A stretch of 44,625 bases of DNA from a virus, in the UHGV virus genome UHGV-0129366. The stretch is one strand, 5' to 3'. Positions within the stretch are counted from its first letter, which is position 1; each line of letters opens with the position of its first letter. The notes below the pieces were generated by a model that was given only the letters and a program-made list of their open reading frames with translations, had not been told where the DNA came from and did no database searches. Made by a program: the position numbers and the translations under genes. Positions 2,877-13,089 of the stretch are shown here, piece by piece.

Positions 2877-3950
2877 TCATTTGTCGATTTCAATTTTGTC
2901 CCATTCCCGTCCACGGCTATCCCTATACCGCGCAGCCATTGAATCTGATTTATGCCCGAGAAGACGTTGAGCAAACTTATCGCCAATCTGGTTCCGGTAT
3001 AGCCTTGCTGACAGGCTACGCAGTTCATGGAATGTTGGCGGGTTTCCATCAAATGAGAGTCCAGATGCATTTCTCGCCTTTGTAAAATACTTTGATACTG
3101 TTTTCGGGGAAAGCGGATCGTGATGCTTTGATGCGATTATAGTTTCACTGCTGCTGGCCTCCCTGCATTTCTGTAGTGTATCAGCCAATGAGATATTGAG
3201 CGCGTCAATCGTTAGCATTAGCGGAATGGCGAGTTTAGCCCCTGTTTTACTCTGTTCAATGTGAAGATGGTTGTCGTTTATGTCTGACCATTTCATTCTG
3301 CATAAATCGCCCACTCTCTGCCCTGTAACGACAGCCAAATCCATCGCCAGCCTTAGCCAGATAGGGAGAGGTTCGGCTGCATGGTAAATCTCGACATACT
3401 CATTAGCTGTCAGCCTTGAGCGCCTTACTTCTGACTTTGCTGTACGGGTTGCTGTTACCGGATTCGTTGCCACATGCCCCTCGGCTATTGCTTCACGAAA
3501 AACGTCAACAAGGGTTGACCTGATTAATTTTGCGGAAGCTGCTTTACCTTCTGCTACGTAGGTGTTTAGCATTGCTGCCACATCTTTCGTTGATATGTCA
3601 GTGAGCGGTTTGTCCGGCAATTTTCTTCGGATTGCCCTGATTTTGCTGGCGTAGTCGAGTAGAGTTTTCGGCCTGATCCCCCTTTCGGTGAGGATTCTTT
3701 CATATCGGTCAAGCCACACATGAAGAGTGATTGCGTCACCGCCTTTAATTCTGTCTATCAGTGATTTGCGTCCGCTGTCTGAGAGTAACTCAATATTGGC
3801 CTGTATTGCTTCAGTGATTGCTATCCTCCTGTCTCGGCCTAATCCAAACTCTTTACCCGTCCTTGGGTCCCTGTAGCAGTAATATCCATTGTTTCTTATA
3901 TAAAGGTTAGGGGGTAAATCCCGGCGCTCATGACTTCGCCTTCTTCCCAT
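2877..3950 (-). CDS. int: Tyrosine integrase, lambda/HK022 Int family
   Basis: 357 aa, N-terminus MGRRRSHERRDLPPNLYIRNNGYYCYRDPRTGKEFGLGRDRRIAITEAIQAN and C-terminus near-collinear with lambda Int; catalytic R-K-H-R-H-Y context (HELRSLSARLY, LLGHKSD). Confidence 0.95.
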   Translation of the reverse strand: MGRRRSHERRDLPPNLYIRNNGYYCYRDPRTGKEFGLGRDRRIAITEAIQANIELLSDSGRKSLIDRIKGGDAITLHVWLDRYERILTERGIRPKTLLDYASKIRAIRRKLPDKPLTDISTKDVAAMLNTYVAEGKAASAKLIRSTLVDVFREAIAEGHVATNPVTATRTAKSEVRRSRLTANEYVEIYHAAEPLPIWLRLAMDLAVVTGQRVGDLCRMKWSDINDNHLHIEQSKTGAKLAIPLMLTIDALNISLADTLQKCREASSSETIIASKHHDPLSPKTVSKYFTKARNASGLSFDGNPPTFHELRSLSARLYRNQIGDKFAQRLLGHKSDSMAARYRDSRGREWDKIEIDK

Positions 3951-4146
3951 TTCTGATCCTCTTCAAAAGGCTACCTGTTACTGGTCGATTTAAGTCAACC
4001 TTTACCGCTGATTCGTGGAACAAATACTCTCTTCCATCCTTAACCGGAGGAGGGAATATCCTGCACTCGCGTACCCATCGACGAACTGTTTCAAGGCTTC
4101 TTGGACGTCGCTGGCGTGCGTTCCACTCCTGGAGTGTCAAGTACAT
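3928..4146 (-). CDS. xis: Excisionase Xis
   Basis: 72 aa, MYLTLQEWNARQRRPRSLETVRRWVRECRIFPPPVKDGREYLF..., one substitution from lambda Xis as recalled; overlaps int start as in lambda. Confidence 0.93.
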   Translation of the reverse strand: MYLTLQEWNARQRRPRSLETVRRWVRECRIFPPPVKDGREYLFHESAVKVDLNRPVTGSLLKRIRNGKKAKS

Positions 4147-4173
4147 CGCAAAGTCTCCGCAATTACACGCAAG

Positions 4174-4193
4174 AAAAAACCGCCATCAGGCGG
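4174..4193 (-). terminator. Putative rho-independent terminator upstream of xis
   Basis: Minus-strand hairpin ccgcc/tgat/ggcgg followed by a T-run (plus-strand A-run 4174-4179). Confidence 0.4.
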
Positions 4194-4353
4194 CTTGGTG
4201 TTCTTTCAGTTCTTCAATTCGAATATTGGTTACGTCTGCATGTGCTATCTGCGCCCACAGCATCCAGTGGTCATAGCAGTCATTGATGTTCTCTGCTTCG
4301 ATAACTCTGTTGAATGGTTCTCCATTCCATTCACCTGTGACTCGGAAGTGCAT
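4186..4353 (-). CDS. Small hypothetical protein (55 aa)
   Basis: ORF MHFRVTGEWNGEPFNRV... with GGAG Shine-Dalgarno 8 nt upstream; below the ORF-track cutoff; ends in the terminator hairpin. Confidence 0.3.
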   Translation of the reverse strand: MHFRVTGEWNGEPFNRVIEAENINDCYDHWMLWAQIAHADVTNIRIEELKEHQAA

Positions 4354-4425
4354 TTATCATCTCCATAAAACAAAACTCGCCGTAGCGAGTTCAGATAAAA
4401 GAAATCCCCGCGAGTGCGAGGATTG

Positions 4426-4710
4426 TTATTCATTGCCGATATTCACCTTTATCGCGAATACCTTTACCGGTTTATCGCCGAAGTGCGGATGTGTGATTGT
4501 CTTGATTTCATACCCTTCATACGGGACGTCTATTCTGCGACTGGAGTCGTCGCGCTTCGGATATCCCTTTGTGATAATCAGGCGGTCATATTCCCGGAAC
4601 ATAATTCGCTTATTCCAGTAGTCATTACACAGGCGATACTCTTCCGTTTTCTCTCCGCGAATCATGGCATCGAAGTATTCACCTTTGACGGCAAGTTGAA
4701 GGTTAGCCAC
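4426..4710 (-). CDS. ASCH/DUF3850-like (PUA-fold) protein
   Basis: 94 aa; motif KGEYFDAMIRGEKTEEYRLCNDY...REYDRLII matches the remembered DUF3850/ASCH pattern. Confidence 0.45.
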   Translation of the reverse strand: MANLQLAVKGEYFDAMIRGEKTEEYRLCNDYWNKRIMFREYDRLIITKGYPKRDDSSRRIDVPYEGYEIKTITHPHFGDKPVKVFAIKVNIGNE

Positions 4711-5326
4711 GGTTAACCTCCTGCGGCGGTTCTGGTAGCGGCATCCAGAACAAGGCGTTCCCTAACCACGATAAAGTGCCGTCGCTCAACTCCACGTATT
4801 CCCCTTGCACCTGTCCTGCCATATACTCACCGTGCTTTGAATAAATTAAAATCCAATCATCTTGAGCGGGCATTCGCTCACTACAGCTTATCCAACCACC
4901 CGGAGTTACCGGAGAGTTGCCGCGTTCTTTAATGTGCAAGCGAGGCTCACCATCTTTTGGTTCAGGCCACTGACGCTCCATGTTGATCTTCAATTTATCT
5001 TCCATAGCAGCGGTAATTTCAGCATCGCTGATGCCAGCACGGCGTTGTGCATCCCACAACAGAAACTGCATATCAGCCCACTCGCTAAGATCGTCTGGTT
5101 CGGCTGCGGCTTCCAGTGCCTCTTTTGAGAGGTGTTTCAGTGGACCAATGGGGCCAACGCAGCCAAATGTGGAGTCAGACCATTTGGCATGCTCGTGGCG
5201 AATCTGTTCGCGTTCCAGTGATGCCAGTGCAATTCGTGCCAGTTCCATTTGTTCGCCACGGGTAAGCCCGTTTTCAAGCGGGTATTTAATGAACAATTCA
5301 ATACGTTCTTTAGTAATAGTGGTCAT
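4703..5326 (-). CDS. MazG-like dNTP pyrophosphohydrolase N-domain with DUF551-like C-terminus
   Basis: 207 aa; acidic EexxE...EWAD motif block (LSKEALEAAAEPDDLSEWADMQFLL) typical of MazG-type NTP-PPases; Trp-rich C-terminal region. Confidence 0.45.
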   Translation of the reverse strand: MTTITKERIELFIKYPLENGLTRGEQMELARIALASLEREQIRHEHAKWSDSTFGCVGPIGPLKHLSKEALEAAAEPDDLSEWADMQFLLWDAQRRAGISDAEITAAMEDKLKINMERQWPEPKDGEPRLHIKERGNSPVTPGGWISCSERMPAQDDWILIYSKHGEYMAGQVQGEYVELSDGTLSWLGNALFWMPLPEPPQEVNRG

Positions 5327-5336
5327 TTGTTAGTCC

Positions 5337-6092
5337 TTAAACTGCTAGTTGCAATTGCATTTCAAAGCGGTCGCGTTGTTCACAATACGCAAGAGAACCA
5401 GGGCTATTGTGTGCCTCAATCCGTTCTACCATTAATGCTGCGCGTGTCTCTTTACTTGCAGGTGCATAAGCCCCAGACCAGGCTTTATCAATACCGATGT
5501 TTCGAGCGACGTTCGTACTATCTGCGCTGGCTAAGGGTAATTTTGTGAATATCAGCGGATTTAACATGCGCAATCCATGTAGTTTCGTAACCGGCTGACC
5601 ATGCCCATCAACAATGTGACGAATCAGGTCTTTCATTCTGGCTACCGCAAGAGTTGGGCGCTTTACGTCATAGTCGCCACAACTACCGATAGCCACTCGC
5701 GGAAACTCATTGCACAAATGAATAAATCGCTCGTCACTTTCATTCATGTGCCACACTGGAACGCCAGCTAGTTTTCCGTGAGGCCACTCATTCAGAAGCG
5801 CATCATTTTCCTCCTCTCCGCCATCAATAATATCCGGGATAATGGCAAAATCGAATCCTGGGTGATTCTTCCAGCGAGCAACAAACTCGTAGTAATCGCT
5901 CCAGTCGATTTTGTTTTTGCCAGCTGCTTTCCAGGCGGTGAATGCACCGTTGTCCAGCGCGAACGACTGACAGTATTCAGCCGCGAGATTGATCTGGCCT
6001 GAATGCGCAAAACTGATAAACGCATGTCGCCCTTTCCATGCTCTCATTGCGCACGTATCAGGAGTAATAGGCCCACCGTGGTAGTGAATCAT
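5337..6092 (-). CDS. tRNA-guanine transglycosylase-fold protein, DpdA-like candidate DNA transglycosylase
   Basis: Collinear motif matches to bacterial Tgt: LDNGAF vs LTDSGGFQ, AIIPDII vs MIFDEC, ADSTNVARNIG vs FDCVMPTRNARNG; no C-terminal zinc-binding CxCxxC...H region; start set at ATG 6092 with AAGGAG SD. Confidence 0.5.
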   Translation of the reverse strand: MIHYHGGPITPDTCAMRAWKGRHAFISFAHSGQINLAAEYCQSFALDNGAFTAWKAAGKNKIDWSDYYEFVARWKNHPGFDFAIIPDIIDGGEEENDALLNEWPHGKLAGVPVWHMNESDERFIHLCNEFPRVAIGSCGDYDVKRPTLAVARMKDLIRHIVDGHGQPVTKLHGLRMLNPLIFTKLPLASADSTNVARNIGIDKAWSGAYAPASKETRAALMVERIEAHNSPGSLAYCEQRDRFEMQLQLAV

Positions 6093-6093
6093 C

Positions 6094-6738
6094 TCACTCT
6101 CCTTTGATGCGAATGCCAGCGGCGCGGGAATCATTCCATCGCTTTACTTCTTCACGAATTACGTCAATGCATTCTTTCGAATCCATTAGGTAATCTTCAT
6201 CAAAAAGCCTTTCCTGTTCGTTTTCTATCGCAACAATGATTGCTTCAACTAACTTTTGTGCCTGAGAACCACTTTCTAACTCTGCAATGCGCTTCTCTGC
6301 GGCCTCTGCCCTGCATTGTTCCCGTTGGAACATTTTGTGGGTGCGGTCGAGCGCCTCAAGTCTGGCTGCTGATGTTTTCTCTTCTGCTTCAAGCTCAACG
6401 CGCAGCTTCCCTACCGTTAGCGCAATATCCTCGTTCTCCTTGTCGCGGGATTTTATGTATTGCTGGTTTCTTTCCCGTTCATCCAGTAGTGCCAGCGCAA
6501 CATTTGGATTAAAGGCAGCAATAAATTCAGCGTTTGCGTAAGCCTGAGCATCTGTTTCAACCAGGCAGTTAACATGACATTCTGCAATCACGCCACCGGG
6601 TTCTCCTTTCCATTTTTGACAAACAAAAACTCCTGTTAAATTGCCGTGCTGGTTAACAGATGTATGCCCTACGATGTAGCTTCCTTTAGTTGCTTTCTCT
6701 GCCTTTTCACGCAGTGCCTGATAGTTAATCTCGCTCAC
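6094..6738 (-). CDS. Ead/Ea22-like early protein
   Basis: 214 aa; N-terminus [19 protein letters not shown]...AEFIAAFNPNVALALLDERE typical of the Ea22-like family, followed by coiled-coil. Confidence 0.55.
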   Translation of the reverse strand: MSEINYQALREKAEKATKGSYIVGHTSVNQHGNLTGVFVCQKWKGEPGGVIAECHVNCLVETDAQAYANAEFIAAFNPNVALALLDERERNQQYIKSRDKENEDIALTVGKLRVELEAEEKTSAARLEALDRTHKMFQREQCRAEAAEKRIAELESGSQAQKLVEAIIVAIENEQERLFDEDYLMDSKECIDVIREEVKRWNDSRAAGIRIKGE

Positions 6739-6980
6739 TCTTCATCCTCCAAGTCGGCAACGGCGTCCATCACATCAGAACCGCGAATAACCTCAAAAGC
6801 ACGGCAGGCCATTTGAAATACCAGTTGCTCTTGCGGGTGAGGAGACTCCCAATATTTGAAGCCTGGGCGATGCGTGTACCCCATCATTGAATAAAAATCA
6901 CCAGCAAGCTTAATCGCGGCATCGACAAGCTCTCTGTTAGTCATTCTTTTTCCGCTCACTGGTTGCCTCCTTTGCGCCAC
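6735..6980 (-). CDS. Hypothetical early protein
   Basis: 81-aa ORF in the early-left operon, ATGA-coupled to the downstream gene. Confidence 0.4.
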
Positions 6981-7156
6981 ATCGCATTCAGATATTTGTT
7001 TTGATTCACTGACGGAAAAGAATTTCTCTTAAGCAATTCCTCTCTCGATGGCATTGGCTTTACGCGTTGGCGAATAATCATTTCTGCCGGAAGAATGCCG
7101 GGATTGTATGCAAGTCCTCTCATGGTAAATTCCTCAGTCATTACTGATAGCGCCAT
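6956..7156 (-). CDS. Hypothetical early protein
   Basis: 66-aa ORF in operon context; no recognisable motif. Confidence 0.3.
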
Positions 7157-7430
7157 AGCGTGAGCGGTAATTACGCAGGCGCGGGTCGATATATTCAGGG
7201 AATTTGTCTATTGTCGCTTTTCGCAACGGTCTCATTGCTGTTTCGTTTGTTCGGTCCTTCTCCTGTTTTAGCGCGAGTTGTATATCGCGTCGGTACATCC
7301 GTTCTGCTTTTGTTTCTGGTGTCAGAGCAAGAAACGCGTCGAAATTGTTTTTGATATTCTCCAGCACCTCCGCCTTGGAGCTACCGGAGCAGTTGCGCGG
7401 GTCATCCGCACCATACAGAGGCGCTGGCAT
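7134..7430 (-). CDS. Hypothetical early protein
   Basis: 98-aa ORF in operon context. Confidence 0.4.
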
Positions 7431-7453
7431 AATGGGAGCCTTATTTTCAGTAA

Positions 7454-8041
7454 TCAGAAAGCAGGGTAATCGTTCTGGCTGTAACCATAATCATCTGCAT
7501 GATTCTGGCTTACGTTTTTAGAGCGATTGTCTTTATCTTTGAGGCTGGCAACCATGTCGGCGATAGTTTCTGGTTGCTTGCCTTCTGCCTTTTCTTTAAG
7601 GGTTTGACCTGTTTGTGCAATAAACGGGATGCGTATTTCCATCTGGTAGCTGTCTGCGCCAGTCTTTTTGTTTGTGGTTAATACTTTCTGGAGCACTAAC
7701 CCGATTTTCTTTCCATGAAATTCAGGTGCAACAAATTTACTGGCGGAAACCATATGCTGCGTTAATTGTCCAATCCCGGCACACCCCATCATGGCGTGAA
7801 CGACATTTGCGCCAAATTTGTTTTCCGTTCCGTCATTTTTCTGAACACAAACGCTAAGATACTGGATTTTACGTCCGTCGTCGGATTCTCCAGAAAACTC
7901 AATAAATTTGGCTCCTTTTTCTGATTTCTTTAGTTCTGCTTCAGTAATGGTAATGATATGGGCGCCAGTTTCGTTAATAAAACCACCTTGCCCTGCGGTC
8001 AGTGCTGCTTCTTCGTTATAAGTAAAAATCACGTTGCTCAT
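7454..8041 (-). CDS. Phage SSB-like ssDNA-binding protein (Sak4 partner)
   Basis: 195 aa directly downstream of and overlapping the Sak4-like gene; acidic C-terminal tail ...DDYGYSQNDYPAF resembling SSB tails. Confidence 0.5.
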   Translation of the reverse strand: MSNVIFTYNEEAALTAGQGGFINETGAHIITITEAELKKSEKGAKFIEFSGESDDGRKIQYLSVCVQKNDGTENKFGANVVHAMMGCAGIGQLTQHMVSASKFVAPEFHGKKIGLVLQKVLTTNKKTGADSYQMEIRIPFIAQTGQTLKEKAEGKQPETIADMVASLKDKDNRSKNVSQNHADDYGYSQNDYPAF

Positions 8042-8726: not shown

Positions 8727-8927
8727 TCAGAATGGTAATTCGGATGGGGAGGAAAGAAACTCACGCTCATTCATGCGCTCTCTTTGTGCCTGCCATAAGC
8801 AAAGTTGTTTCTTTGATTTATCTCCCGCTTTACGCCAGTAACGAGCCTCAGCAATGTGATATTCTCTTTTTAATCGACTTAACTCTGGAGTTTTCGCCAG
8901 TTCTACCGGAATCATTTTGACCTCCAT
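8727..8927 (-). CDS. Hypothetical protein (gam-equivalent position)
   Basis: 66-aa ORF between kil and the Sak4 gene; no similarity to lambda Gam noticed. Confidence 0.35.
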   Translation of the reverse strand: MEVKMIPVELAKTPELSRLKREYHIAEARYWRKAGDKSKKQLCLWQAQRERMNEREFLSSPSELPF

Positions 8928-9025
8928 TTTCTGTAGGCTTCGACGGCCTCACGAAACATCTTTTCATCGCCAATAAAAGCGGCGATAGTGAATTTAGTCT
9001 GGATAGCCATAAGTGTTTTATCCAT
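8912..9025 (-). CDS. kil: Kil-like host cell division inhibitor
   Basis: MDKTLMAIQTKFTIAAFIGDEKMFREAVEAYRKW resembles lambda Kil as recalled; sits immediately downstream of cIII as in lambda. Confidence 0.55.
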   Translation of the reverse strand: MDKTLMAIQTKFTIAAFIGDEKMFREAVEAYRKWRSK

Positions 9026-9158
9026 TCTTTGGGACTCCTGGCTGATTAAGTATGTCGATAAGGCGTTTCCATCCGTCACGTAATTTACGGGTGATTCGTT
9101 CAAGTAAAGATTCGGAAGGGCAGCCAGCAACAGGCCACCCTGCAATGGCATATTGCAT
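9018..9158 (-). CDS. cIII: CIII, FtsH inhibitor
   Basis: MQYAIAGWPVAGCPSESLLERITRKLRDGWKRLIDILNQPGVPKNG matches lambda CIII; AAGGAG SD upstream. Confidence 0.85.
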   Translation of the reverse strand: MQYAIAGWPVAGCPSESLLERITRKLRDGWKRLIDILNQPGVPKNG

Positions 9159-9379: not shown

Positions 9380-10003
9380 TTATGCGACCTCGGAAGGAAG
9401 TCCAATCATCTTATTCAAATCTTCTACCCGTAAAGCAGGAAGTGCTGTACTTGCTTTATCTGCTTCTTTTGGTAGCAACTCTTTGCTTTCAGGCCAAACT
9501 TCAATAAGTCGCTTAACTGTTGTGACTGAGTTCAAAGCAGCCCATACATTTGATTCGATATCCTTTTTCTTGGCTTCAAGTTTTTGTTGCAATGCGCAGA
9601 TTTCATCAAACCTTTTTGTTATTTCGTGTTCTGCGCTAAACATGCATTTATCTTTGGTCGGAGTAGGGAGCAATATATCTTCGCCGTTGCCGTCTTTCCC
9701 ATATGAATACCAGCCAACCCTTCTGCCAGATACAGTCAGATAAATTGAAGTTGAACGGGCATCGCATGAGTAAAATGAACATCCCAGCTTTTCAAGTTCT
9801 TCGCTTATAGCCATTAACTTGGATGATAACTGATCCACTTCCTCAGTTTTCTTTTTACCGCCAAACGCAACAACTCTGGCGTCAAGTGCAAGCTGGTTCT
9901 TTAACTTTGTTACTTCTTCAAGCTCAGTGAAAACCCCAGATTTAATTAAAGCGTTACGAGCGATTTTCTCTTTCATTCTCGTAGTTAAGCGGATTGATGA
10001 CAT
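9380..10003 (-). CDS. Hypothetical early protein (about 207 aa)
   Basis: Start moved to internal ATG 10003 (MSSIRLTT...) preceded by GAGG; lies between N and cIII where lambda carries ral/ea10. Confidence 0.45.
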   Translation of the reverse strand: MSSIRLTTRMKEKIARNALIKSGVFTELEEVTKLKNQLALDARVVAFGGKKKTEEVDQLSSKLMAISEELEKLGCSFYSCDARSTSIYLTVSGRRVGWYSYGKDGNGEDILLPTPTKDKCMFSAEHEITKRFDEICALQQKLEAKKKDIESNVWAALNSVTTVKRLIEVWPESKELLPKEADKASTALPALRVEDLNKMIGLPSEVA

Positions 10004-10781: not shown

Positions 10782-11711
10782 CTAATCGATTGATTTAATA
10801 TCCCATTGAGGTCGAGAAACCAGAGTGTATCTGGGCTTGCCCTTACCAACAGTTTTTTTCAGGAACGTGGCTGTTGCAACGCTTCCTAAGTGCTTGTTTA
10901 TAATATCTGGGTCATCTACAGCTTTGTCAATGCTAGCGGTTCTGATATCAGTGTTACCTAAAACTATAAATTCACATTGGCGCTTGTTAGGAAGAGTTCC
11001 CAAAAATATAACGTTCTCAATAATTTTTTCCTGCTGAATGTTATCATTGCTGAGATGTTGATATACAGCTTCAAGCTGTTTTGGCTCTCTAAAAACGATG
11101 CTAAAACCTTGGCTTTTAAGTGTAAAAACTGTTTTATTTTCATGCAGATAATGAATGAATGCTCTGATTTTATCTAAGGCCCGAGAGTCTAAGTTTTCTA
11201 TAGCATCAGACAATTCTTCATCATCATTATCCAAGCTTGCCTGAAATATTTTTCTGGCCTTATTAATAGCTTTTGCTACTGGGGTTTCTTCATCGAATTC
11301 AAGAGGAGCATCAGGTCTAAACTCTTCAAGTACGAATCCGAAAGAACCACGGGCTGACGCGGTAATCATGAGATGATTATTTTCTATGTTTGGTATCTTG
11401 CCTGATGCAGGAAGTGGGCCATTGAAAGAGGTTGCCAAGTAAGCTATTGCATCATTAAAACAAGATATAGCTTTTGTTCCAAATACTGCTGAAATGCCAT
11501 GCGTGCCAACTACTGTTGGGCCTCTAAAAGTTAACACAGCATGCGTAGGTTCATGTTCTCGAACGTCAGCTTGTGAAATTAATCGCTCAACTTTCTCCAG
11601 ACGGTCTTCTAAGCTTTTTCGGCTAATAGAATGACTTGTTGGCATATTTTTTAATAGATTACTTATTTGCTCGCGCTCACTGAGAGCGAAAACATAATCA
11701 TTACGATTCAT
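10782..11711 (-). CDS. Uncharacterised protein, second gene of the rexAB-slot operon (309 aa)
   Basis: Long ORF, start overlaps the upstream gene stop by 4 bp (ATGA); no family recognised; contains an R-x6-H stretch (RAFIHYLH) of unknown significance. Confidence 0.6.
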   Translation of the reverse strand: MNRNDYVFALSEREQISNLLKNMPTSHSISRKSLEDRLEKVERLISQADVREHEPTHAVLTFRGPTVVGTHGISAVFGTKAISCFNDAIAYLATSFNGPLPASGKIPNIENNHLMITASARGSFGFVLEEFRPDAPLEFDEETPVAKAINKARKIFQASLDNDDEELSDAIENLDSRALDKIRAFIHYLHENKTVFTLKSQGFSIVFREPKQLEAVYQHLSNDNIQQEKIIENVIFLGTLPNKRQCEFIVLGNTDIRTASIDKAVDDPDIINKHLGSVATATFLKKTVGKGKPRYTLVSRPQWDIKSID

Positions 11712-12286
11712 TGTTTGACCCCCTCAGTAGTAGCCGAATTAAGTATAGTCATTGCCACAACATCAAGTTGTGGGTTTAACGGGATTTGGATAAATCCCTT
11801 CCACGACAGATCGCGTCTATGTGCCCACATACTGTACCAATATACAGTCATTTCAACAAGCTCATGACTTGGTAGATTAAGTTCTTGGAAGTAGGAATCT
11901 ACGAAAAACTCCTTCTTAACAAAATCATGATCAAATAGCTCTGGCTTTCTACCGATTACGATTGCATCATTATCGCCATTACTGAATTGAAAAAAGGTCA
12001 CAACATCGACATCATTCGGTGGCCTTTTTTCAATAAGTTCAATATGTTCTGTGAAGCTTCCATCTACCCACTGAAAACCTTCAACTAGCCCTGCTTGAGT
12101 GAGTGAAACACGAAAGTTAAGAAAACCCTTAAGGATTTTAATCCTTGCAGGGCTAAGCGAAAAAGTACTAACAAAGCGTACTATATCCATTTTGTATGGG
12201 GAACGAGTATGGCTTGTAGGATCAGCCTCGTCTATTGGGGGGATTAACCCCATCTCATTCCATAGAGAGACAGTTGGTATACTCAA
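11708..12286 (-). CDS. Uncharacterised protein, first gene of the rexAB-slot operon (192 aa)
   Basis: Begins 86 bp downstream of cI on the same strand; segment VDGSFTEHIELIEKRPPNDVDVV loosely resembles a GS...DxD nucleotidyltransferase-fold signature. Confidence 0.6.
   Translation of the reverse strand: MSIPTVSLWNEMGLIPPIDEADPTSHTRSPYKMDIVRFVSTFSLSPARIKILKGFLNFRVSLTQAGLVEGFQWVDGSFTEHIELIEKRPPNDVDVVTFFQFSNGDNDAIVIGRKPELFDHDFVKKEFFVDSYFQELNLPSHELVEMTVYWYSMWAHRRDLSWKGFIQIPLNPQLDVVAMTILNSATTEGVKQ

Positions 12287-12372: not shown

Positions 12373-13089
<717 letters not shown>

Follow-up and report, generated by a model that had tools for sequence, protein, structure and literature searches.

Introduction

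The exchange of guanine for 7-deazaguanine bases in DNA is an established means of restriction resistance in phages, and the phages in which it has been tested are nearly all virulent ones with a complete preQ0 pathway of their own. Deletion of dpdA from phage CAjan led to the loss of all dPreQ0 from the phage DNA, and the dpdA of phage 9g alone produced dPreQ0 in plasmid DNA of Escherichia coli, at 0.03–0.3% of G (PMC6884629). Here, we analyzed a 251-codon open reading frame (ORF) at 5337–6092 on the minus strand of the virus genome UHGV-0129366, a stretch of 44,625 nucleotides that is called the window below. From the sequence alone, its product had been predicted to be a DpdA-like protein with the fold of tRNA-guanine transglycosylase (TGT), and thus a candidate enzyme of DNA modification.

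Phages that carry dpdA alone were described previously. The supplement of Hutinet et al. (2019; Nat Commun 10:5442) lists SPN3UB, SfI, HK106, 7-11, BTP1, SEN1, and PEAT2 as "only DpdA". It was suggested that DpdA-only phages could use preQ0 of the host or preQ0 that is taken up (PMC6884629). In the DNA of phage 7-11, dADG amounted to 50 per 10^6 nt (about 0.02% of G) and dPreQ0 was not found, while no modification was found in the DpdA-only mycobacteriophage Orion, whose host is without preQ0 synthesis (PMC6884629). Our literature search returned no work after 2019 that tests a singleton DpdA of lambdoid or temperate phages.

The catalytic residues are best described for bacterial DpdA (bDpdA). 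In this enzyme the general acid/base is Asp95 and the nucleophile is Asp256, and the exchange is abolished when either is replaced by alanine. Phe99 stacks on the base, which is recognized by Asp130 and His181, and the 7-substituent of the incoming base is read by the loop G206-G207-M208-V209 (PMC10164549). With its Val, this loop confines the pocket to preQ0; the Val is absent in eukaryotic TGT, which leaves room for queuine (PMC10164549).

Homology to Phage DpdA

A profile of 66 sequences, the members of which were 31–94% identical to the query, was aligned with CAjan DpdA by hhalign at a probability of 98.9% (E = 1.9e-17, 173 columns). BLASTP of the 251-amino-acid protein against CAjan DpdA gave an E-value of 4e-9, and a match with an E-value of 9e-16 was obtained with gp87 of Arthrobacter phage Sonali, the gene of which adjoins a ParB-like gene as well as QueC, QueD, QueE, and FolE. 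Moreover, this protein and CAjan DpdA both matched phrog_887, named "queuine tRNA-ribosyltransferase", with E-values of 7e-103 and 8e-96, respectively, and the same family also holds Sonali gp87 and the homologues of 7-11, HK106, and PEAT2. A joint alignment of the clade with DpdA1, the type of CAjan and 9g, revealed D47, G49, A50, H115, E118, G136, H172, G173, D191, and S192 as common residues, and the two catalytic Asp positions were invariant across both groups.

These results support the assignment of the gene, by sequence, to the phage DpdA family, in the "DpdA-only" branch of gamma-proteobacterial phages. The DpdA-like reading of the original prediction is thereby supported by homology to a genetically validated enzyme. 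The chain of evidence from this protein to the validated DpdA1 is strong, and that from DpdA1 to bacterial DpdA is weak. The DpdA model of PADLOC matched CAjan DpdA weakly (E = 1.3e-3).

The window protein was 93% identical to that of SPN3UB, 68% to that of SfI, and about 35% to those of HK106 and 7-11. Since near-identical proteins were catalogued as DpdA by Hutinet et al. (2019), both the family and the idea of a DpdA supplied by the host pathway were already published in that year.

Conserved Residues and Predicted Fold

More than 7,700 homologous proteins were found in a word-index search, and an exhaustive profile search returned 1,508 homologous clusters at 50% identity. The homologous proteins listed were all without a precomputed Pfam domain and without a functional name. 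In the 66-sequence alignment D47, H172, D191, and S192 were invariant, and H5, A50, P86, D87, G91, H115, E118, and G136 were among the nearly invariant residues. A second set, consisting of 116 full-length representatives of the 50%-identity clusters, showed the same tendency: D47 was retained in 113, D87 in 114, H115 in 113, H172 in 103, and D191 in 98 of the 116, the misses at D191 being mostly alignment gaps.

All three motifs of the original prediction were located in the protein (all coordinates on the minus strand). LDNGAF, residues 46–51 (5940–5957), lies at the C-terminal end of β-strand 3 and aligns with LDSGAF of CAjan DpdA. AIIPDII, residues 83–89 (5826–5846), follows β-strand 4, and ADSTNVARNIG, residues 190–200 (5493–5525; codons checked on the sequence), is at the end of β-strand 8. 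Three further conserved positions are H115 of PVWH at the end of β-strand 5 (5748–5750), which is also found in 15 of 15 DpdA1 sequences, the loop G136-S137-C138-G139 after β-strand 6 (5676–5687), for which the clade consensus is GSSG, and H172 of KLHGL (5577–5579), just upstream of ADSTNVARNIG. Spurious motif matches had been named as a possible failing of the prediction; the catalytic residues D47 and D191 are present and conserved throughout the family, and the motifs are not due to chance.

Counterparts of the bDpdA residues were assigned by their order along the barrel and by alignment, without structural superposition. D47 is presumably the general acid/base, corresponding to Asp95 of bDpdA and Asp102 of TGT, and F51, four residues further on, matches Phe99 of bDpdA. 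D191 is likewise the putative nucleophile (Asp256 of bDpdA, Asp280 of TGT), and D191-S192 align with CDSS of CAjan DpdA. H115 possibly corresponds to His181 of bDpdA, judging from strand order. D87 is a candidate for the Asp of base recognition (Asp130 of bDpdA, Asp156 of TGT), and this role is uncertain because DpdA1 has Ser at this position and its conserved Asp at the equivalent of D90. The loop G136–G139 appears to be the counterpart of the G206–V209 loop of bDpdA that reads the substituent.

The only cysteines of the protein are residues 14, 41, 127, 138, and 237, and they form no cluster after D191. A C-terminal zinc site (CxCxxC...H) is therefore absent from the 251 residues, as the original prediction had pointed out when it described the protein as lacking the zinc-binding subdomain.

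With the diverse 66-sequence alignment as input, AlphaFold gave a model with a mean predicted local distance difference test score (pLDDT) of 93.3 and a predicted template modeling score of 0.90, while an earlier run with close homologues only had reached a pLDDT of 62. The model contains eight β-strands alternating with helices (residues 2–6, 23–27, 43–47, 80–84, 113–115, 132–136, 170–174, and 189–192), and the fold is predicted with confidence to be an eight-stranded TIM barrel. Active sites of TIM-barrel enzymes are located at the C-terminal ends of the strands, and it is there, or just beyond, that strands 3 to 8 of the model carry the conserved residues. The closest structural neighbours among predicted viral proteins were phage "queuine tRNA-ribosyltransferase" proteins. 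Weaker matches, with E-values of about 3e-3 to 4e-3, included DpdA2 of Vibrio phage nt-1 and a protein of Cellulophaga phage phiST.

Substrate Supply and Genomic Context of the Family

The original prediction had noticed no preQ0 synthesis genes in the window and looked to the host queuosine pathway for the substrate. Homologues of FolE, QueD, QueE, QueC, and YhhQ of CAjan were neither found in the window by tblastn nor annotated there, and none occurred in 80 related viral loci. On the other hand, 5,425 of the 5,426 complete E. coli genomes contained queC. The host is thus able to provide preQ0, and a dependence on the host pathway is consistent with these results.

The lone-DpdA clade is spread over temperate phages of Enterobacterales, Vibrio, Shewanella, and Pseudomonas. 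The neighbours in the close loci are mosaic. An Ea22-like gene is located upstream in 52 of 81 loci, and a member of a gene family with the N-terminus MTTITKERIELF is downstream, also in 52 of 81. In other loci the gene is found in different modules, beside a DnaB-like or a RusA-like gene. The gene therefore behaves like a single-gene cassette with no obligatory partner. Within E. coli, the allele was carried by 204 of the 5,426 complete genomes, and it was at least 99% identical in 190 of these 204; Shiga toxin-converting phages are among its carriers. Every full-length E. coli entry listed bears the RefSeq label "hypothetical protein".

Among more distant relatives, a VUT/YhhQ gene lies directly upstream in Pectobacterium phage PEAT2, Flyfo siphovirus Tbat1_6, and Escherichia phage Opt-719, the proteins of which are 38–45% identical to this one. 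YhhQ/VUT is a family of preQ0 transporters. In Pseudomonas phage Epa33 (3240–5330) and in a Shewanella P2-like prophage (3200–4813) the DpdA-like gene has a large C5 cytosine DNA methylase as its neighbour, and the recurrence of the methylase in two unrelated phages suggests a shared module of DNA modification or anti-restriction. Furthermore, Vibrio phage 1.100.O carries an S-adenosylmethionine-dependent methyltransferase 1.5 kb upstream of its DpdA-like gene. These contexts fit with salvage of a 7-deazaguanine base and with DNA modification.

Proposed Function and Alternative Explanations

On balance, the gene probably serves to replace guanine in phage DNA, after replication, by a 7-deazaguanine from the host, at low density and during lytic growth. 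We infer that DNA is the substrate, and likewise which base is inserted, how far the DNA is modified, and that this counters restriction. Upon induction of the prophage, the leftward early operon would be transcribed and the enzyme made, which would then act on double-stranded phage DNA after replication. D191 would attack C1' of the target deoxyguanosine and displace guanine, giving an intermediate in which enzyme and DNA are covalently joined, with D47 as the general acid/base of the base exchange. A free 7-deazaguanine base would resolve the intermediate and take the place of guanine. Because the phage is without preQ0 genes, this base must be derived from the host, presumably from its queuosine pathway (FolE, QueD, QueE, QueC). 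Only a small fraction of the guanines, probably in a sequence motif, would be modified, and the DNA would be partially protected from restriction in the next host.

Several results weigh against this proposal. No match to PF01702, or to any other Pfam or NCBIfam model, was obtained at E-values up to 1, and sequence searches of the PDB with the protein and three profiles (phmmer and hmmsearch) returned neither TGT nor DpdA. The probability of the hhalign alignments to E. coli Tgt and to a 9-sequence TGT alignment was below 1%. Foldseek against the PDB did not single out TGT, an entry of which appeared at rank 37 (E = 0.039), and the DpdA model of PADLOC did not match this protein. Moreover, pools of preQ0 in E. 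coli are probably small, since QueF reduces preQ0, and no conserved partner gene was found in the 80 related loci, where the neighbours were only mosaic lambdoid genes. Two sites in the protein also depart from DpdA1. The loop after strand 6 reads GSCG in this protein, GSSG in 66 of the 116 representatives, and GGMV in 15 of 15 DpdA1 sequences; the strand-4 Asp is D87 of IPD here, while the conserved Asp of DpdA1 (in LDG) lies three residues later. In addition, the singleton DpdAs form their own cluster, from gamma-proteobacterial phages, the function of which may have diverged (PMC6884629), and the sole experimental datum on the clade is the trace of dADG in phage 7-11, the protein of which is only 35% identical to ours.

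As for the missing link to TGT, the Pfam scan of the 66 family members gave no match, and the validated CAjan DpdA was likewise without a Pfam or PDB-sequence match; a search of the PDB with a DpdA1 profile also failed. Since even the validated enzyme behaves in this way, all phage DpdAs reveal their link to TGT only in HHpred or structural comparisons, as published. The weak, non-significant hhalign alignment to TGT nevertheless keeps the motifs in register (LDNGAF with TDSGGFQ, AIGS with AVGG, and KLHGL with YLMGVG), and it pairs SADSTNVARN with FDCVMPTRNARN. The direct comparison of motifs with TGT, from which the original prediction had started, was not statistically reproducible by Pfam, PDB sequence and profile searches, hhalign, or Foldseek. 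Kinship with DpdA was significant in the hhalign alignment (98.9%), and that with Tgt was not. The 9-sequence TGT alignment was drawn from tgt genes in "phage" records. Several of the "UNVERIFIED" records among phages carry ordinary bacterial tgt genes, 36–98% identical to E. coli Tgt, and look like bacterial DNA filed as phage.

The main rival, to which we give a minor share of the probability, keeps the chemistry and changes the base or the purpose: a DpdA-family exchange of shifted specificity, for preQ1, a queuine-like base, or another salvaged purine analogue, or else a mark at rare sites only, which would serve as a signal or in anti-defence and not as bulk protection against restriction. 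GGMV of DpdA1 consists of the same four residues as G206–V209 of bDpdA, and by alignment the position of its pocket-restricting Val is Gly in the clade, which has its own conserved loop. TGTs without that side chain take bulkier substrates (PMC10164549). Since GS(S/C)G replaces GGMV, the base inserted by the clade may differ from that of DpdA1. The displaced strand-4 Asp, the dADG in place of dPreQ0 in 7-11, the divergence of singletons considered by Hutinet et al., and the VUT transporter partners of relatives, which point to salvage of a free base, tend in the same direction. However, the loop rule fits imperfectly for CAjan DpdA, which has GGMVGR and inserts preQ0, and the loop was mapped solely by sequence alignment. 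The stronger version, in which the IPD/GS(S/C)G lone-DpdA clade is a distinct DNA transglycosylase inserting a base other than preQ0 (preQ1, queuine-like, or otherwise salvaged), is accordingly put forward only tentatively, from the sequence features, and we think it doubtful. If it were true, the base would come from the host or through VUT transporters, and temperate phages would carry an undescribed DNA mark.

Two explanations that depart further from DNA modification are both unlikely. The enzyme could be a tRNA-guanine transglycosylase that alters the wobble base of host or phage tRNA during infection rather than DNA, as PHROGs and several GenBank records imply by "queuine tRNA-ribosyltransferase", and transglycosylases of tRNA and of DNA share one chemistry. 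We hold this to be quite improbable. The family name was inherited from remote homology, there is no significant similarity to canonical TGT, and the zinc subdomain that is conserved in TGTs and bDpdA is absent here, while the demonstrable relatives are DNA-modifying DpdAs; moreover, E. coli already has tgt, and the neighbours in related phages are DNA methylases, not tRNA genes. Slightly less probable still is an unrelated or lost activity, such as a decayed DpdA, a DNA glycosylase that does no more than remove a base, or another sugar or nucleotide enzyme. It would agree with the top PDB matches in Foldseek, which were generic TIM barrels (tryptophan synthase alpha and dehydroquinase, E about 2e-3), and with the lack of modification in the DpdA-only phage Orion. 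But the strong conservation of the catalytic residues over 1,508 clusters argues against decay, the gene is nearly identical in 190 of the 204 carrier genomes, and the Orion result is explained by a host that makes no preQ0. The exchange for a host-derived 7-deazaguanine stays the preferred explanation, and of all its features only the altered substrate loop could bring a surprise.

Prophage Setting and Neighboring Genes

The ORF begins with MIHYHGGP, and the coordinates of the original prediction were correct: the RefSeq coding sequence WP_000582230.1, labelled "hypothetical protein", has the identical limits of 5337–6092. A longer in-frame ORF extends to 6134. The start was fixed at 6092 because the homologues all begin with MIHYHG, because a ribosome-binding site is suitably positioned, and because an upstream stop codon lies 1 nt away. 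This site, a strong AAGGAG at 6099–6104 on the minus strand, was read from the sequence 6 nt upstream of the ATG (6092–6090). The stop codon is the TGA (6096–6094) of the Ea22-like ORF, which ends 1 nt before the ATG, so translation of the DpdA-like gene is probably coupled to that of the Ea22-like ORF. The Ea22-like ORF (6094–6738, minus strand) is intact in the window and encodes 214 amino acids, while RefSeq treats it as an incomplete pseudogene (6196–6738).

Positions 4500–7500 of the window matched the E. coli O7:K1 CE10 chromosome at 100% identity, and the match there is a lambdoid prophage integrated beside torS. The DpdA-like gene is flanked by xis/int (2877–4146) and kil/cIII (8912–9158), all on the minus strand; the cI repressor gene (12373–13086) is also on the minus strand, and cro is on the opposite strand. 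From this position between xis/int and kil/cIII, with cI on the same strand, the gene belongs to the prophage's leftward early operon, which agrees with the operon named in the original prediction.

The gene downstream (4703–5326, minus strand) is an intact ORF of 207 amino acids with a complete dATP/dGTP pyrophosphohydrolase domain (PF04447, E = 6e-42) and DUF551, which RefSeq divides into a shorter coding sequence and a pseudogene fragment. Homologues of this PF04447 protein were present in 26 of the 80 related loci. That a nucleotide pyrophosphohydrolase adjoins a guanine-exchange enzyme may be a coincidence of a mosaic region.

Further away, an Nmad5 protein (PF18757, "nucleotide modification associated domain 5", E = 4e-71) is encoded at 9380–10003 on the minus strand, between cIII and the immunity region and at a distance of 3.3 kb from the DpdA-like gene. 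Nmad5 was found in 341 phage records, and in Vibrio phage Athena1 its gene (6693–7322) is 1 kb from the DpdA-like gene. It was present in none of the 80 close DpdA-like loci and in one of 12 diverse loci, that of Athena1, and a functional tie between the two genes is weak on these counts. In Dhillonvirus, mutations of nmad5 allow escape from Tmn defence (PMC11846954).

Two genes at 10782–12286 on the minus strand adjoin the repressor gene, in what we take to be the position of rexAB in phage lambda. The product of one is a DUF6932 protein (PF22014, E = 2e-26), which matches PDC-M63A, a candidate defence model of PADLOC (E = 2e-10), and the other is a 309-amino-acid ORF with no family match. 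The two may form a prophage-encoded defence pair.

Comparison with Known Systems

A lone-gene clade in temperate phages must borrow its substrate from the host, unlike the virulent phages in which the modification has mostly been tested. If the enzyme is active, many prophages of pathogens would release partly modified DNA, with effects on horizontal transfer, restriction barriers, methylome calls made from sequencing, and defences that sense modified DNA. The practical gain is small, in that a "hypothetical protein" could get a name.

With canonical Tgt (PF01702), the protein has in common the order of the motifs DSGGF, GG loop, MGVG, and DCV..R. It differs in having neither the zinc subdomain nor the N-terminal β-sheet lid region, and it is about 125 residues shorter. 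Bacterial DpdA, as represented by the Dpd island of Salmonella Montevideo (PDB 7UI4), is similar in the chemistry proposed, with two catalytic Asp residues and a covalent intermediate, and presumably in its TIM barrel, but its structural zinc site and large Ins8 insertion are absent here. Neither a ParB-like DpdB ATPase nor any other dpd gene was found in the annotation of the prophage.

The likeness to DpdA1 of CAjan and 9g is closer in motifs and family: LDxGAF, PxxH..E, KxHG, and xDS are common to both, as are phrog_887 and the lack of a zinc motif in CAjan DpdA and in this protein, and a barrel fold is presumably common to both as well. On the other hand, identity does not exceed 24%, CAjan DpdA has 306 amino acids compared with 251 here, and the C-terminal extension of DpdA1 is missing. 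DpdA1 has ASxLDG after strand 4 and GGMV after strand 6, compared with IPD and GS(S/C)G in this clade. The DpdA1 phages are virulent, with the gene beside folE, queD, queE, queC, and yhhQ, while this phage is temperate and has none of these genes alongside.

The closest systems are the DpdA-only phages, namely SPN3UB, BTP1, SEN1, and 7-11 of Salmonella and SfI and HK106 of Enterobacteria, which carry lone genes of the same family within phrog_887 and no genes for preQ0 synthesis. In HK106 even the position of the gene agrees, with the recombination genes on one side and xis/int on the other. This copy shows no difference of substance from them: it is the member carried by the CE10 prophage, which RefSeq lists as a "hypothetical protein".

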